The notes below the pieces were generated by a model. It made no database searches. It was not told the origin of the DNA and saw nothing but the letters and a program-made list of their open reading frames with translations. DNA of 64,000 bases from an uncultured Armatimonadetes bacterium (GTDB taxonomy: Bacteria; Armatimonadota; Hebobacteria; Hebobacterales; Hebobacteraceae). Of the stretch, positions 44,285 to 61,641 are shown piece by piece. Where the stretch lies: assembly GCA_963716175.1 (NCBI GenBank), contig OY970296.1, forward strand, positions 309,302-373,301. The letters are read 5' to 3'. The position numbers were made by a program, and so were the translations under genes. Within the stretch, counting starts at the first letter, position 1. Every line of letters begins with the position of its first letter.

Positions 44285-45091
44285 CTAGATCTTGGGGGGC
44301 TTGACGCTGTAGCCGTGCTTGGCGAAGATGGCTTTGCCTTTGGCCGAGGTGACGAAGTTGATGAACTCCTGGGCCTCCTCGCGCTGCTTGGAGTAGACTG
44401 CCACCGCGGCCGGCACGTTCCGCACTCTCAGCAGCTTCGCCGGGATCTTCACGAGGTCTATCTTGTCCGGCGCCCAGGACTTGAAGGAGTCCCAGCCGAT
44501 GATGGCGTCCACCTCGCCCAGCTCGACGAGCTGCTCCGTCTGCTCGCAGCTCCCCGCGTAGGTGATGACGTTCTTCGTCACTTGCTCCTCAAGGCCAGCT
44601 CCCTTGAGGACCTCCACCGCGACATCGCCGAGGCACACGGCTCCGGCCCTTGCCAGGCCCACCTTGAGCCCCGGGCGCGCCAGATCGGCGAGCGACTTGA
44701 TGCTCTTGGGATTGCCGTGCTGAATGCAGATCGTAGGCACCAGGTAGGCCACGATCTTACGCGTCGCCGGCACCACCACCTTCTGCTTCTCAGCCTTATC
44801 CATGAAGTCGTCGGAACCGGGCATGTAGATGTCGCCCGTCTCCTCGAGCTTCATCTGGTTCAGCAGGGTGCCGCTGCCGCCGAAGGTCATATCCACGGTG
44901 ATGTTGGGGTGCATCTTCTCGAAGACCGCCTTGGCTTCCAAGGCCGGAGGCTTGCTCGCCGAGCCGATGAAGGCGGTGAGCCGAACCTGCCTGGCGGCCG
45001 GCTTCCCCAAGCTCGCAAGCATCGAGAATCCGAGCGTGAGCGCGAGCACCGCGAACGTAAGCATTGTTCGACCGATGAGACGCATCTCCAT
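44285..45091 (-). CDS. Periplasmic substrate-binding protein, molybdate/tungstate (ModA/WtpA)-like
   Basis: Signal helix, then LTAFIGSASKPPALEAKAVFEKMHPNITVDMTFGGSGTLLNQM...GDIYMPGSDDFM...GEVDAIIGWDS, resembling oxyanion-binding PBPs. No permease or ATPase gene is adjacent. Confidence 0.55.
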   Translation of the reverse strand: MEMRLIGRTMLTFAVLALTLGFSMLASLGKPAARQVRLTAFIGSASKPPALEAKAVFEKMHPNITVDMTFGGSGTLLNQMKLEETGDIYMPGSDDFMDKAEKQKVVVPATRKIVAYLVPTICIQHGNPKSIKSLADLARPGLKVGLARAGAVCLGDVAVEVLKGAGLEEQVTKNVITYAGSCEQTEQLVELGEVDAIIGWDSFKSWAPDKIDLVKIPAKLLRVRNVPAAVAVYSKQREEAQEFINFVTSAKGKAIFAKHGYSVKPPKI

Positions 45092-56867: not shown

Positions 56868-57710
56868 CTACGTCGGCGGGTGCTCTTCCCCCGGAATCCC
56901 CACCGCATCCGCGGGGCACTGCCGGCAGAGCCGGAACTGCTTGATGATGCGCTCGCACTGCAAGCGTGTCTCGCGCAGTTCATGGCAAGATGGAGGTGCG
57001 AGATGCCTGAACCTCCCCAGTGGGATGAGCGGGGTGATGTTCTGTATGTGGGCACCGAGTCTGCTGACCACCCCGGCCACCTTCTCCAGATGTCCGCCGT
57101 CGTTCAGCCCTGGAAGGAGGATGCTGTTAACCTTGATCGCGAATCCCAATGCGGCTGCCTTTTCCAGCCCGGCGAGTTGGCTCTCCAGCAGGGCCTTCGC
57201 TCCTTCCAGGCCCGTTAGCCTCTTGCCACCATGCTCGACGTAGGCATAGATCCTTTCGCCGATCGTGGGGTCAACGGTGTTCATCGTAACCGTCAGTGTC
57301 CGCACCCCCAGATCCCACAACTGTTCTGAGCGCTCGCACAGCAGCAATCCATTGGTGCTCACGCACAGCATCAAGGCAGGATAGCGGGCGCTGACCAGCT
57401 GCAGTGTCTCGAAGGTGCTGGATTGGCAGAGAGGCTCCCCTGGCCCCGCAATCCCGACCACTGCCAGGCTGGCATCATGCGCCAGGTACTGGTCTAGTCG
57501 TCGCAGCGCCTCCTCCGGGGTCAGGACCCTGTCGGCTACAGCGGGACGGTAGCTGTGGTAGGTCTTCCCCCCGATCTCCCGCTCGCAGTAGTTACAGCCG
57601 AGGTTGCAGTCCGGGGCCACAGGCAGATGCATCCTGCCATACCGGAAGTGAGCCGAAGGCGAGTAGCAGGGGTGCTTGTCCAGATTCACCACGGCAGCGC
57701 TTCTCGTCAT
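56868..57710 (-). CDS. NifB-like radical SAM protein (core domain only)
   Basis: Translation has KHPCYSPSAHFRYGRMHLPVAPDCNLGCNYCEREIGG...VVGIAGPGEPL...VSTNGLLL...TVTMNTVDP, closely following the NifB radical-SAM domain pattern. It is 280 aa with no NifX-like extension. Confidence 0.85.
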   Translation of the reverse strand: MTRSAAVVNLDKHPCYSPSAHFRYGRMHLPVAPDCNLGCNYCEREIGGKTYHSYRPAVADRVLTPEEALRRLDQYLAHDASLAVVGIAGPGEPLCQSSTFETLQLVSARYPALMLCVSTNGLLLCERSEQLWDLGVRTLTVTMNTVDPTIGERIYAYVEHGGKRLTGLEGAKALLESQLAGLEKAAALGFAIKVNSILLPGLNDGGHLEKVAGVVSRLGAHIQNITPLIPLGRFRHLAPPSCHELRETRLQCERIIKQFRLCRQCPADAVGIPGEEHPPT

Positions 57711-57752
57711 CTGCCGGCCTCGTCGTAGGCCTCTCTCATTGCCGGTAAGTGC

Positions 57753-58610
57753 TCAACCGGGTAGACCATCGGTGTGCGCATAGACTGACTGGTAGAGCAC
57801 CTCCAGGTCAGACCACTCCATGGGGGTTGGGATGACGCGGATTTCATTGTCCAGCACCGCGTCTGCAAGCCGGCGGAAGTTCCCCGCGGCGAAGGAGTCA
57901 GGCAGGGCCTCCATCACCGTCTTCCCGTGGACCTCGCACATCTGGATATCCTGGCTGCGAGGGATAGAGCAGACCAGAGTGCATCCCAACTTGGAGGCGA
58001 AGTGCTCCAGCAAGCGGTTCTCGTAAGCTTCCTCCCCGCGGTGATTGCAGATGATGCCGGCCAACCGGGACGGACTGTGCTGGGCAAGGCGAGCAATCCC
58101 TCGCGCGATGTTGTTCGCCGCGTAGAGGCTCATGAATTCCCCGGTGCAGACCAGGTAGATCTCGCGAGCGTACCCCATCCGAATCGGCTGAGCAAAGCCG
58201 CCGCACACCACATCCCCTAGCACGTCGTAGAGCACCACGTCCAACTGGTAACGGTCAAACGCACCTTTGTCCTTGAGGTAGGAGATAGCAGTGAGCACCC
58301 CTCGCCCCGCGCATCCGATGCCAGGCTCCGGGCCACCGGACTCCACGCACTTGACGCCCTGGTACCCCTCGAACACAACTCCTTCCAGAGGGACTGTCTC
58401 CGCGTCTTTTCCGGCCGCCAGCTGGTCGCGCATCCGGTCCAGGACGGAAGGGATCATCCGGCCGCCGGTGAGATTGCGGGTCGAGTCTCGCTTTGGGTCG
58501 CACCCGATCTGCATCACCTTGCATCCGCGCTCGGCGAAGGCGACGGAGAGGTTTGCGGTGATGGTGCTCTTCCCAATGCCGCCTTTCCCATAGATCGCGA
58601 TCTGTCTCAT
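57753..58610 (-). CDS. NifH-like ATP-dependent reductase (nitrogenase iron protein family)
   Basis: Translation has MRQIAIYGKGGIGKSTITANL, MQIGCDPKRDSTR, EPGIGCAGRGVLTAI, YDVLGDVVCGGFAQPIR and EFMSLYAANNIARGI. The ATG lies 2 nt after the upstream stop (TGAGGATG). The 71-codon 5' extension in the track overlaps the upstream gene. Confidence 0.9.
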   Translation of the reverse strand: MRQIAIYGKGGIGKSTITANLSVAFAERGCKVMQIGCDPKRDSTRNLTGGRMIPSVLDRMRDQLAAGKDAETVPLEGVVFEGYQGVKCVESGGPEPGIGCAGRGVLTAISYLKDKGAFDRYQLDVVLYDVLGDVVCGGFAQPIRMGYAREIYLVCTGEFMSLYAANNIARGIARLAQHSPSRLAGIICNHRGEEAYENRLLEHFASKLGCTLVCSIPRSQDIQMCEVHGKTVMEALPDSFAAGNFRRLADAVLDNEIRVIPTPMEWSDLEVLYQSVYAHTDGLPG

Positions 58611-58612
58611 CC

Positions 58613-59941
58613 TCACCACTTGGATCGGTACCTCTTTTCGCGGGAGCGCCACCGCTGTTGGTGGTCGTTCTCTAGGATCTCCAGCAGATGCAGCAGACCC
58701 TCGTACCCGAAGTAGGGCCGGTCGGTCATATAGAAGCGATCCGTCGGGGAGATGACGTTGAAAGAGAACGGAATGCCCAGCTCTTGAGCGAGGTGGTGTT
58801 CGACCATGCTGCCAAACACGCATGCAGGCTTGCTCTCCCTCAGGCCTTGCTTGACGTCGTAGGCGTCCGCGTCGAGGGTCACGGGAGTGGCAAGCGTGAG
58901 CTCTTCGAGCTCACGCTTGAGAATGGAACGGGCGGTCTCATCGGACGATCTCAGGAAGATCGAACAGGGTATCGCCTCCAGGTCCTCCATGATCAGCCGG
59001 ACTAGCGGGATGCCAACAGTCGCGTCCGCTACGATCGCGGCCTCCACCCGGTGGAAGAAAGCAATCCCGGGACCGCGCAACCGGATGGCGCAGATGACCT
59101 GCTCGTGGCCTTCCTCAATCAGCTCCTGCGCCGTCTGCTCCGCGCCAAATCGCTGGCCCAGGGCCTCCAGCCATCTTCTCGTGTTCGACAGCCCAATGGG
59201 GAGCGGTATCTGCCGGCAGACCGGCTCGATGTCGTATCGTTCGGCAAGCTTGTCGGCGATCCCCCCGCCGGCATCATGGCTCAGCAGGAGACTGGTCTCG
59301 GCCGACGGAGTGCGGGCGATCCCCTCCATGTCCTGCAGATGGGTCAAGACGCTGACTACGGTGACTCCCATTTCAGCGAGCACCCCTCGCACCCAGGCCA
59401 GATCGGCATGCCACGTCGGATTCGCGCTGGCATGAGGGGCAATCAGCGTGACTGAGTTCTTAACCTTTCCCCCGCTATCGCGCGCAGCGAAGTCCAGCAG
59501 CTTTCCCAGCGCCAGGTCAATCCCCTGGTATTCGTCTCCCCGAAAGCCCGCGCACTCGATCGGCAGGATCTGCGCGCTGGACTCCGGAGCCATCAGCTCT
59601 GCGACTGCGGCGATGTCGTCGCCGACGACCTCCGGCCCGCAAGCGGAGAGGATGAACAGATAGGGCATGCCATAGGCCTCAGCGTCTCGGATGGTCTCCT
59701 TGAGCCGCTCCTCTCCCCCGTACACGATCTCCTTCTCGCAGAGCTTCGAAGAAACGACATGGGCCTCGGAGAAGTCCACATGCTGGCTGGCGAGCGCGTT
59801 GCCGATGAGGCCGTGGCAGCCTTGGGGACAGTGCAGGACAATGCAGGCGTCTCGGATCCCAGCCACCGTCTTGGCCGCTCCTGCGAAAGCGCACCGGAGG
59901 TAGGGGTCCAGGCAGCTCCGCTCTGTGGGGTTCTCTGGCAT
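58613..59941 (-). CDS. Nitrogenase NifK/NifN-family (beta-type) component-1-like subunit
   Basis: 442 aa. Cys17 (RCAFAGA), Cys42 (VLHCPQGC) and Cys101 (ILSACGPEVVGDD) are spaced 25/59, as in the NifK P-cluster ligands. Confidence 0.8.
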   Translation of the reverse strand: MPENPTERSCLDPYLRCAFAGAAKTVAGIRDACIVLHCPQGCHGLIGNALASQHVDFSEAHVVSSKLCEKEIVYGGEERLKETIRDAEAYGMPYLFILSACGPEVVGDDIAAVAELMAPESSAQILPIECAGFRGDEYQGIDLALGKLLDFAARDSGGKVKNSVTLIAPHASANPTWHADLAWVRGVLAEMGVTVVSVLTHLQDMEGIARTPSAETSLLLSHDAGGGIADKLAERYDIEPVCRQIPLPIGLSNTRRWLEALGQRFGAEQTAQELIEEGHEQVICAIRLRGPGIAFFHRVEAAIVADATVGIPLVRLIMEDLEAIPCSIFLRSSDETARSILKRELEELTLATPVTLDADAYDVKQGLRESKPACVFGSMVEHHLAQELGIPFSFNVISPTDRFYMTDRPYFGYEGLLHLLEILENDHQQRWRSREKRYRSKW

Positions 59942-59976
59942 GGGCCTTCTCTGGATCCGGGAGATCGGTCAGCTCG

Positions 59977-61641
59977 CTACCACAGGTCCCCGTGCACTGC
60001 GATGCCGTACATTGCCTGCCGCATCAAGCCAGAGCGAGGCCGATCGGCGTGCTTTATCGCCGAGGCGGCGCGGCGAGCGATGTTCTGTACGCCAGTGAAG
60101 CCGAAGTGAGGGAAGGCGATCTCGGTGTCCAGGTTGACCACCGGGACGCCGGGGAACCGCAACGGGCTGCCGAAGTAGACGAAATCGTCCGCTCCGCCGA
60201 TGAAAGCCTCCAGCTCGTCCTGCGTCTGCTTGGAGACTTCGTAGCTGCCCATCTCAAAGGCGCCTTTAGTGAGCACGACTTCCGGATTCTCTCCACTGTC
60301 GAGCAAGAACCGAACCGCCGCCTTCCGCTCCCGCAGGGTATACGGGTGCATGTTGAAGATCACGGCTTGCATGCCGAATTCGGCCGCCATCCGGGCGAGC
60401 GCGATGGACCGCATGGGCCCGGTCTCTATCAAGGCCGTCCGACCTTGGAGCAAGGACCTAGCCTCCCTCAAGTCGGGCTCGATGCGCTCGGCCTCACGAG
60501 CTGTGAACTCGCGCGCCTGATCGTCCAGGCCCAAGGGCTCGGCAATCTTGCGAACCCAGTCCATGGTGGCTCCCATCCCGTAGGGGAGCCCGGATTCGCA
60601 GAAGGGAATCCCAAACCGCTCCTTCATGAGCAAGCCGATGCGCCTGCCCCAATCGAAGCACCAGGACGTGTTCAACGCCGCGCAGGGAGCACGTCTGACC
60701 TGTTCCAGGGTACAACCACCCGCCACTACACTGTGCAGCTTGGCCCCGAACTGGGAGAGGATGAGCTGCAGCTCCTCGATGTCCTCCCGGATCTCCGTGT
60801 ATGGGGGGCCCGCTCGCGCGCCGACGATGTTCACGCTGTGCGGAATGGTCTCTGTGGGAGGCTCCATCAGATCCACAATGACGCGGAAGGCCTGCTCGTG
60901 CCCACTTCGGAAGTCGCCCCCAAATCCCTCGCTGCGGATGGTCGTGATCTCCGCCTTCACCTGCCCCCGCATCTGCCGGGCGATCCCCTCGACGTCATCC
61001 CCAGTGATTCCGGGGCAGCAAGTGCTCATCACCACGATGAGATCCGGGCAGTACTTCTGGTCCACCTCCAAGATGGCCCGGGCGAGCTTGCCTTCGCCGC
61101 CAAAAACGACGTGACTCTCGTTCAGTGCAGTGCATACCGTGGGTTCGTAGGGCCGGCCGCGGTATTGACAGCCTGCGACCCTAAGGCCCCGAATGGAGTA
61201 GGTGCACCCGCGCGGGCCGTGCACGATCGGCACCACGTTGTTGATCCCGCTGATCACTGTAGCCGCGGTCTGGAACTTGCAGGGGGGCGCGTGAGAGGCC
61301 TGTAGCTGGGAGGAGAGCTCGCCGGCCTCCACCCTTCGCAGGTACTCATCCAGCCTGCCCTGAAACACGATGTAATCCGTTTCCGCCACGTCACTGATAC
61401 TAGACCCTTTGGACCTGCGAAGCAAGGACTGATTCCGCCCGCGCTGCCAACCCGCGGTCTCCCGCCCATGCCCGCACGGTGCTAGACGCCCATTGCTGTA
61501 ACCACGGCAAGCAACGCATCCGCATCTGCCCCAGAGCCACGTCGCCTTGACAGAAGTCCTGCCACCGGCTACCCTTGGCCCGTCTGGTCGAGGCAAGTCA
61601 GGCGGGAGTGGGAAGGTGGCTGCCGCATTGGCTGTGCTCAT
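59977..61641 (-). CDS. Nitrogenase NifD/NifE-family (alpha-type) component-1-like subunit
   Basis: Cys121 (PPCKF), Cys146 (VHGPRGC), Cys208 (MSTCCPGITGDD) and Cys328 (SWCFDWGRRIGLLMKERFGIPF). The true start may be internal (e.g. GTG ~61389), because the first ~90 codons look atypical. Confidence 0.8.
   Translation of the reverse strand: MSTANAAATFPLPPDLPRPDGPRVAGGRTSVKATWLWGRCGCVACRGYSNGRLAPCGHGRETAGWQRGRNQSLLRRSKGSSISDVAETDYIVFQGRLDEYLRRVEAGELSSQLQASHAPPCKFQTAATVISGINNVVPIVHGPRGCTYSIRGLRVAGCQYRGRPYEPTVCTALNESHVVFGGEGKLARAILEVDQKYCPDLIVVMSTCCPGITGDDVEGIARQMRGQVKAEITTIRSEGFGGDFRSGHEQAFRVIVDLMEPPTETIPHSVNIVGARAGPPYTEIREDIEELQLILSQFGAKLHSVVAGGCTLEQVRRAPCAALNTSWCFDWGRRIGLLMKERFGIPFCESGLPYGMGATMDWVRKIAEPLGLDDQAREFTAREAERIEPDLREARSLLQGRTALIETGPMRSIALARMAAEFGMQAVIFNMHPYTLRERKAAVRFLLDSGENPEVVLTKGAFEMGSYEVSKQTQDELEAFIGGADDFVYFGSPLRFPGVPVVNLDTEIAFPHFGFTGVQNIARRAASAIKHADRPRSGLMRQAMYGIAVHGDLW

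Follow-up and report, generated by a model that had tools for sequence, protein, structure and literature searches.

The P-cluster and the carbide-containing Fe8S9C cluster were, until 2025, regarded as belonging to nitrogenase only. Methylthio-alkane reductase (MAR) disproved that. MAR contains a P-cluster and an [Fe8S9C] cluster, the latter held by Cys270 and His429 of MarD (PMC12552129). On the beta side, MarK Cys32, Cys56 and Cys121 ligate the P-cluster, as seen by cryogenic electron microscopy (cryo-EM) (PMC13474568). His429 adjoins Arg428 on a MarD-specific loop (Loop I), where Arg428 replaces NifD Gly424 (PMC12552129), and mutagenesis showed this Arg428-His429 pair to be essential (PMC13474568). 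With MAR it became clear that the distal histidine had evolved separately, on different loops. Here we describe a four-gene operon in a stretch of 64,000 nucleotides from an uncultured Armatimonadetes bacterium (the window; contig OY970296.1, positions 309,302 to 373,301), whose products carry the cysteine ligands of both clusters and, as far as alignments can tell, neither of the two distal histidines.

Several other described systems bear on this locus. Six P-cluster cysteines plus an equivalent of NifD Cys275, without an equivalent of His442, are the published signature of most Group IV nitrogenase-like (NFL) sequences (PMC13474568; PMC12552129). In the 'inward' state of NifEN, an L-cluster occupies the homologous pocket, held by no more than Cys250 and a weak Gln419 (PMC13031127). 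Dark-operative protochlorophyllide oxidoreductase (DPOR), chlorophyllide oxidoreductase (COR), CfbD and the Group VI enzymes are without NifB and without Cys275 (PMC13474568).

The operon and its cysteine ligand positions

The operon lies on the minus strand (56868-61389) and consists of genes for a D subunit, a K subunit, an H-type ATPase (Fe protein) and a NifB-type radical S-adenosylmethionine (SAM) enzyme, with spacings of 33 nt (D-K), 2 nt (K-H) and 40 nt (H-B) (Table 1). Both D and K match PF00148 (Oxidored_nitro) and have the NifD/NifK type of fold, and a NifH-family ATPase adjoins them, as expected of a nitrogenase superfamily component 1. The H protein has a Walker A motif (GKGGIGKS), switch I (CDPKRDSTR), CAGRG with the Cys97 and Arg100 equivalents, and DVVCGGF with the Cys132 equivalent; both switch regions are present. 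In the NifB-like protein we find HPC, H-L-P-V-A-P-x-C-N-x-x-C-N-Y-C, AGPGEP, C-x-STNG, TVTMN (TxTxN) and a C-terminal C-x9-C-x2-C-PADAVG.

The best NCBIfam models for the operon are nifE, nifD, bchB, cfbD, nifH and nifB, each matched far under its curated cut-off. D reaches 177 bits with nifE, its best match (cut-off 505), and 133 bits against nifD (cut-off 654), and it stays below cut-off for all nif, vnf, anf, bch and cfb models. K scores 112 bits against BchB, 48 bits against nifK (cut-off 427) and only 19.6 bits against nifN, and H scores 350 bits against both nifH (cut-off 394) and CfbC (cut-off 402). Since every gene scores below cut-off, the operon belongs to the nitrogenase superfamily, yet to no curated family. 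NCBIfam holds no curated Mar or Nfl model, and NFL representatives match only nif and bch models, again below cut-off.

The cysteines of D were placed by four methods: phmmer against PDB, a family profile against PDB, MAFFT L-INS-i with diverse superfamily members, and an alignment of 82 family members. Reference NifD and NifK sequences of A. vinelandii were 100% identical to PDB 10zm_C and 10zm_D. In all four alignments D Cys37, Cys62, Cys124 and Cys244 fall on NifD Cys62, Cys88, Cys154 and Cys275. K Cys17, Cys42 and Cys101 fall on NifK Cys70, Cys95 and Cys153 and, against chain 9d9u_C, on MarK Cys32, Cys56 and Cys121. Conservation was counted over 85 loci, which gave 82 D and 68 K sequences. 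The seven cysteines are invariant family-wide, the sole exception being one Gly at D Cys37, and judged from these alignments such retention is far beyond chance. NifN keeps one interface Cys. The three interface cysteines of K would imply an 8Fe rather than a 4Fe cluster.

These results bear on an earlier note made from the DNA alone, which had read D cysteines 121, 146, 208 and 328 as spaced 25/62/120 and K cysteines 17, 42 and 101 as spaced 25/59. All are seen in the translated open reading frames (ORFs), and the spacings it gave for NifD (26/66/121) and NifK (25/58) are correct against the PDB-verified sequences. The 16 residues that it counted from Cys328 to the Gly of GIPF match those from NifD Cys275 to Gly291 of GIPW. 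It took the cysteines for P-cluster and cofactor ligand positions, and the profile and MAFFT alignments do superpose them on the NifDK and MarK ligands. Its prediction of an 8Fe P-type interface cluster gains support from MarDK, where the same six cysteines accompany a P-cluster shown by cryo-EM. One point has to be revised. The note numbered D from the maximal ORF (59977..61641, 554 aa), so that its residue numbers are ours plus 84. The N-termini of 20 relatives all fall at GTG 61389, with M-x-x-D-x-I-V-F-Q-G. Because relatives begin at that position, the true start of D is almost certainly this GTG, which would give a protein of 470 aa. The 84 codons 5' of it (61390-61641) are rich in Arg, Gly, Pro and Cys and, since no relative has a counterpart, are most likely non-coding.

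The D/K pattern is therefore real, and it is not unprecedented, because it is the published Group IV NFL signature: six P-cluster cysteines (three in D, three in K), a Cys275/Cys270 equivalent and no His442. The associated NifB/MarB-type radical SAM gene, with its motifs present and a sub-cut-off score of 271 bits against nifB, also agrees with Group IV.

Other cysteines of the two subunits have no nitrogenase counterpart. Invariant in the family only are D Cys74, Cys86, Cys125 and Cys226 and K Cys10 and Cys68. D Cys125 stands next to Cys124 (61018-61023), is kept in 80/82 and has Pro155, not Cys, as its NifD counterpart; in this third P-cluster ligand region most relatives read S-C-C-C-S-G, with three consecutive cysteines, and window D reads S-T-C-C-P-G. 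In an AlphaFold2 (AF2) model of the D monomer, Cys226 and Cys244 each come directly after the C-terminal end of a strand, the two strands being adjacent in one Rossmann-like domain, so Cys226 may lie near the proximal end of the cofactor pocket. K Cys38 (59828-59830; H-C-P-Q-G-C), four residues ahead of ligand Cys42, is at the position of MarK Cys52, the residue that takes over as a ligand when MAR is oxidised. Cys38 is peculiar to window K, as 67 of the 68 relatives have Ser or Ala there.

The predicted cofactor pocket and its far end

At the position of NifD His442, window D has Asp421, preceded by Leu420. Thr or Ser fills this position in 76/82 relatives, and His never does. The only histidines invariant across the 82 are H33, H57 and H348. 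None falls within residues 405-440, and so the lack of a conserved His442 equivalent holds however the gaps are placed. The Leu/Asp that the earlier note had put at 442 by hand is thus borne out, as is its sequence-based picture of a Cys-anchored pocket with a distal ligand unlike that of Mo-nitrogenase. It had also proposed to tabulate the NifD pocket positions; taken from the 82-member alignment (Table 1), they include no conserved His at 442.

Because this pattern is already known, the informative test is whether a Mar-type ligand is present instead. The phmmer and profile alignments with MarD end near residue 346-431. We therefore used as a proxy the representative P0262, with 47% identity to a MarD fragment. 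Its Cys256, His361, Arg414 and His415 correspond to MarD Cys270, His375, Arg428 and His429, with +14 to be added to the P0262 number in every case. In the MAFFT alignment A-R-H of P0262 sits on NifD S423-G424-I425, and window D has G407-S408-P409-L410-R411 at NifD G422-K426. Aligning the 82-member family with ten Mar-like sequences by hhalign puts Mar Arg428 on a gap and His429 on Ser408. Across the family the Mar-429 position holds N, S or T or is variable, with no His. The Mar-type His429 is absent too, and window D lacks the Arg428-His429 pair that is said to be conserved in published Group IV sets.

The invariant His348 pairs with MarD His375, whose distance from belt sulfide S2B in the MAR structure is 3.9-4.7 Å (PMC12552129). 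For this reason we rejected His348 as the primary candidate for a distal ligand. It is more likely, on this alignment, a residue lining the waist of the cofactor rather than the missing terminal ligand.

The AF2 model of D has a pLDDT of 81, and its top Foldseek match is MarD (9fmg_A, TM 0.69). MarD, NifD, VnfD and NifE all give TM 0.63-0.69, so Foldseek does not discriminate between them.

Table 1. Genes and residues of the operon, with coordinates in the window (numbers of the earlier note in brackets; conservation among 82 D or 68 K sequences)
Feature	Counterpart	Coordinates	Strand	Conservation or support
D-like (alpha-type) subunit, 470 aa, GTG start		59977..61389	-	Pfam Oxidored_nitro 1.4e-78
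K-like (beta-type) subunit, 442 aa		58613..59941	-	Pfam Oxidored_nitro 4e-73
H-like Fe protein, 285 aa, ATG at 58610 (2 nt past K stop)		57753..58610	-	Fer4_NifH 7e-98
NifB-like radical SAM protein, 280 aa, SAM domain only		56868..57710	-	Pfam Radical_SAM; TIGR01290 nifB
D Cys37 (121)	NifD Cys62, P-cluster ligand position	61279..61281	-	81/82
D Cys62 (146), HGPRGC	NifD Cys88	61204..61206	-	82/82
D Cys124 (208), STCCPGITGDD	NifD Cys154	61018..61020	-	82/82
D Cys244 (328), SWCFDWG	NifD Cys275, MarD Cys270, NifE Cys250; proximal cofactor ligand	60658..60660	-	82/82
K Cys17	NifK Cys70, MarK Cys32	59891..59893	-	68/68
K Cys42, HCPQGC	NifK Cys95, MarK Cys56	59816..59818	-	68/68
K Cys101, SACGPEVVGDD	NifK Cys153, MarK Cys121	59639..59641	-	68/68
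D Asp421 (505)	NifD His442 position	60127..60129	-	T71, S5, A2, G2, D1 (Thr/Ser 76)
D Ser408-Pro409-Leu410-Arg411	NifD Ser423-Gly424-Ile425-Lys426, MAR Loop I stretch	60157..60168	-	Arg411 82/82
D His348, N-x-H-P-Y-T	Aligned with MarD His375	60346..60348	-	82/82; hhalign pairs it with P0262 His361
D Thr44	NifD Gly69			Family mostly Tyr/Gln
D Val45	NifD Val70			Val 82/82
Gap in 82-member alignment; D Arg70 in superfamily L-INS-i	NifD Arg96			Family Val/Tyr, uncertain
D Arg161	NifD Gln191			82/82
D His164	NifD His195			Tyr 71, Phe 6, His 5
D Trp247	NifD Ser278			82/82
D Gly324	NifD Gly356			82/82
D Pro325	NifD Gly357			82/82
D Arg327	NifD Arg359			82/82
D Asn419	NifD Glu440			82/82

The family, its carriers and its surroundings

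The family stands apart from its neighbours in the superfamily. In a library of 50%-identity representatives, its scores are 529, 403 and 399 bits and then fall to 223. A quick maximum-likelihood tree of 127 sequences (SH-aLRT support only) joins the family and two 40%-identical representatives in a clade with 99% SH-aLRT. This clade and its sister are both separate from the NifD/NifE clades and from the Mar-like clade, the latter recognised only through proxy P0262. The sister clade comprises 18 representatives (for example P0128, P0129, P0132, P0134, P0146 and P0151) and has the H-P motif in common with the family. Its 442 loop contains an insertion with a conserved [ST]-x-H-x-R-R, which may be a further way of providing a distal ligand.

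Close relatives at 80-84% identity come from metagenomes, and the nearest named genome is an Armatimonadota metagenome-assembled genome (MAG) from peat, at 81%. Members at 49-53% identity are plentiful in Dehalococcoidia and Anaerolineae, and likewise in Methanoregula, Methanolinea, Methanothrix, Methanosarcina and Bathyarchaeia MAGs. The stretch itself is found in metagenomes of wetlands and sediments. The published Group IV sets are drawn from Clostridia, Negativicutes, Bacilli, Fibrobacteria, Bacteroidia, Alphaproteobacteria and Elusimicrobia (PMC13753814). We found no published description of this clade in the literature, and no taxa matching it appear in the supplements of the two key papers. 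Large surveys have probably put the family into an undifferentiated 'Group IV' that contains archaeal NifDK (PMC9447857). As judged from its sequences, the family is new, a distinct cross-domain NFL clade without either known distal histidine.

The D-K-H order is kept in all those of the 85 loci that are long enough to reveal it. In bacterial loci the NifB-like gene comes after H; in methanogens it does not. Directly after H, 12 methanogen and Bathyarchaeia loci carry a 210-aa SAM-dependent methyltransferase at 61-93% identity (for example L055:10639-11271, and in L038, L041, L061, L078 and L085), with weak TehB, UbiG and MduS-type matches; it is the only recurrent non-nif neighbour. No recurrent sulfur-metabolism genes lie near the related loci. 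The NrpR operator GGAA-N6-TTCC was found upstream of D in 0/48 archaeal loci, and its absence there argues weakly against nitrogen-regulated diazotrophy. Four archaeal loci (L034, L055, L064 and L085) share a leader motif, GAGA(A/G)TGTGTGAATC, within the last ~30 nt before the D start, with an A/T-rich TATA-like box ~40 nt upstream.

A link to molybdate or tungstate transport was considered and rejected. The window encodes a ModA-like binding protein (44285-45091, minus strand; TIGR01256, 87 bits against a cut-off of 62.5), and none of the 85 related loci has a homologue of it beside DKH. A TupABC-like ABC set lies upstream in one Dehalococcoidia locus only (L014), and the recurrent ABC ATPases near archaeal loci proved to be unrelated ABC-2 types. 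In soil metatranscriptome run X25, one 151-nt contig at depth 2 is 99% identical to D (61011-61161). This is a hint of transcription or carried-over DNA, too little for a claim of expression.

Proposed function and alternative readings

Read against the MAR, nitrogenase and NifEN structures, from which we infer the cluster identities and the electron path, the homology, ligand positions, conservation, synteny and clade separation described above point to an NFL two-component, ATP-driven reductase of an uncharacterised clade. It probably contains a P-cluster and a NifB-made Fe8S9C-type cofactor. The H dimer, with a [4Fe-4S] cluster on the Cys97 and Cys132 equivalents, would hydrolyse ATP and hand electrons to an [8Fe-7S] P-type cluster. 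This cluster would sit at the D/K interface on D Cys37, Cys62 and Cys124 and K Cys17, Cys42 and Cys101. Electrons would then pass to a NifB-derived [Fe8S9C] cofactor of the L-cluster type, probably all-iron, buried in D. Cys244 would anchor one end of the cofactor, and His348, Val45, Arg327 and Arg161 would line its waist. The far end would have no histidine, with Asp421 at the His442 position and Ser, Asn or Thr at the MAR His429 position. With no histidine at either site, the far end would be held either weakly, in the manner of Gln419 in NifEN, or by a third kind of ligation. Our guess at the role is that a small molecule is reduced or reductively cleaved in anoxic wetland or sediment habitats.

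We suggest only tentatively that the family represents a third mode of holding an Fe8S9C-type cofactor, using neither Loop II His442 nor Loop I His429 and leaving the far end to a hydroxyl, to a carboxylate or unligated. In such a mode D Cys74, Cys86, Cys125 and Cys226 and K Cys10 and Cys68 may add ligands or an extra cluster, and the enzyme would carry out a reduction in methanogens and anaerobic bacteria. The family could resemble the differently ligated ancestor that emerged from ancestral reconstruction (PMC12552129, PMC13031127).

Several observations weigh against an NFL reductase with a NifB-made Fe8S9C-type cofactor. Against TIGR01290 nifB, the NifB-like protein reaches 271 bits (1.6e-80), under the cut-off of 343.65. 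In the sub-clade to which the window belongs, the NifB-like protein is without the Cys usually found after the radical-SAM motif, a K1-cluster ligand in NifB. After CNxxCNYC, residues 42-55 include E-R-E-I-G-G-K-T-Y-H both in the window protein and in a 64%-identical relative (L002), while Chloroflexota NifB-like homologues carry the Cys, as E-R-x-x-C or the canonical K-Y-D-C. The product may therefore not be a canonical L-cluster; the His three residues further on might substitute for the missing Cys. The recurrent neighbours in the 85 loci are D, K, H and B only, and no conserved neighbour gene hints at a substrate. In the D model, pLDDT is <50 in pocket loops 30-35, 73-92 and 156-160. Two MAFFT runs placed NifD 229 and 380/381 differently; the version with His348-Pro349 at 380-381 is the one agreeing with predicted secondary structure and with hhalign.

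Two of the alternatives keep the operon close to nitrogen fixation. It is unlikely to encode a cryptic true nitrogenase, of an Nfa-like kind that would reduce N2 with a homocitrate-free or unusual cofactor despite the absent His442. Such an enzyme would explain why the operon shares with Mo-nitrogenase the need for an Fe protein and NifB (here co-encoded), the equivalents of Cys62, Cys88, Cys154, Cys275, Val70, Gly356 and Arg359 in D and of Cys70, Cys95 and Cys153 in K, and, in window D, a His (His164) at the His195 position. Among NifD proteins the methanogen and C. pasteurianum forms score best; the family profile also scores higher against methanogen NifD (160 bits) and clostridial NifD (153 bits) than against MarD (128 bits), and Group IV-A Nfa reportedly support N2 fixation without canonical residues (PMC13474568). 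However, the marks of NifDK, VnfDK and AnfDK are missing: there is no His442, an invariant Arg stands at Gln191, position 195 is Tyr or Phe in 77/82 and His in only five, window D included, and the nifD, vnfD and anfD scores are far below cut-off. Window D further differs from NifD in Asp at 442, Arg at Lys426, Pro at Gly357 and Gly424, and Trp at Ser278. D and K are 26% and 21% identical to the A. vinelandii proteins, and window K is without an N-terminal extension. Within the window there is no nifE, nifN or nifV, nor a second copy of D, K, H or B, and the NrpR operator is missing upstream in the 48 archaeal loci. Just as doubtful is a NifEN-like scaffold or carrier that passes on NifB's cluster and is not itself a catalyst. 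With NifEN (PDB 9ONK, 3PDI) the window shares a Cys250-type proximal ligand and no strong distal ligand, a state in which the weak Gln419 of NifE allows movement of the L-cluster (PMC13031127); among NCBIfam models D matches NifE best, and a NifEN fusion is its best phmmer match in PDB. Yet the nifE and nifN scores are below the curated cut-offs, K keeps all three interface cysteines against a single one in N, and the NifE I-N-Q-E-R-H loop is absent from window D. The genes form an isolated module that includes an Fe protein; it does not adjoin a nifDK pair, and no recipient DK pair lies nearby in the 85 loci. The invariant Val45, Arg161, Arg327, His348 and Arg411 suggest a fixed active site instead.

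The other alternatives look to enzymes outside nitrogen fixation. We give little credence to a methylthio-alkane reductase or another organosulfur-cleaving Group IV enzyme of the Mar/Isr type, serving sulfur acquisition, although the likeness to MarBHDK (Group IV-C NFL; R. rubrum, PDB 9FMG/9D9U) is broad. Both have an H plus DK two-component architecture with a dedicated NifB-like gene, the same seven cysteines, a His on MarD His375, and no His442, NifEN or homocitrate genes. MarD is the best structural match of D, MarK (9d9u_C, 83.8 bits) is the best solved relative of K, and the organism lives in wetlands and sediments, where dimethyl sulfide (DMS) occurs. Window D lacks the Loop I Arg428-His429 pair, however, and has DFRSGHE in the S2B-facing helix where MAR has HWSTGFD. 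It keeps the Val70 and Arg359 equivalents that are absent from MAR and belongs to a separate clade, with ~18% structure-based identity. Gene order is DKHB rather than BHDK, and sulfur genes, expected around an enzyme that is induced by sulfate limitation and cleaves C-S bonds in DMS, EMS and MT-EtOH, do not recur nearby. Groups IV-A (Nfa), IV-D and IV-E resemble the family in their predicted P-type and L-type clusters and associated B gene. They are said to conserve Arg428-His429, whereas the window family, found in Armatimonadota, Chloroflexota and methanogens, does not; judging from published taxa and features, the family probably falls outside them. Least probable of all is a D subunit without a complex cofactor, in which the pocket would take up an organic substrate such as a tetrapyrrole and the interface cluster would reduce it directly, after the manner of DPOR or CfbCD. 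The missing distal ligand, the poorly predicted pocket loops and the TehB-like methyltransferase after H in 12 archaeal loci would suit such an enzyme. DPOR, COR, CfbCD and the Group VI enzymes have at most four interface ligands (with an Asp in BchB), no Cys275 and no NifB (PMC13474568), whereas here six interface cysteines and the Cys275 equivalent (82/82) are kept and bacterial operons include a NifB-type gene. The earlier note had described the BchB ligands as 'one Cys plus Asp', which should read that the DPOR B subunit supplies an Asp (PMC13474568). It had also held that the operon fits neither a plain NifEN scaffold nor a DPOR-type enzyme. The three K cysteines, the nifN score, the co-encoded NifB and the six P-cluster cysteines uphold that view; the further implication that the operon fits no known class does not hold, as the combination is the published hallmark of Group IV NFL.

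Taken as an NFL reductase, the family would offer a third, widespread clade with P-cluster ligands, a proximal Cys, NifB and no His at either site, and so a natural test of how a scaffold tunes these clusters. It would also let one ask about the common ancestor before N2 fixation. For annotators, 'Nitrogenase component 1' together with nifH and nifB in these genomes should not be taken as diazotrophy. The carriers are abundant anaerobes of wetlands and sediments (Dehalococcoidia, Anaerolineae, Methanoregula, Methanothrix and Armatimonadota), and this range suggests an unrecognised ATP-driven reduction of environmental relevance.

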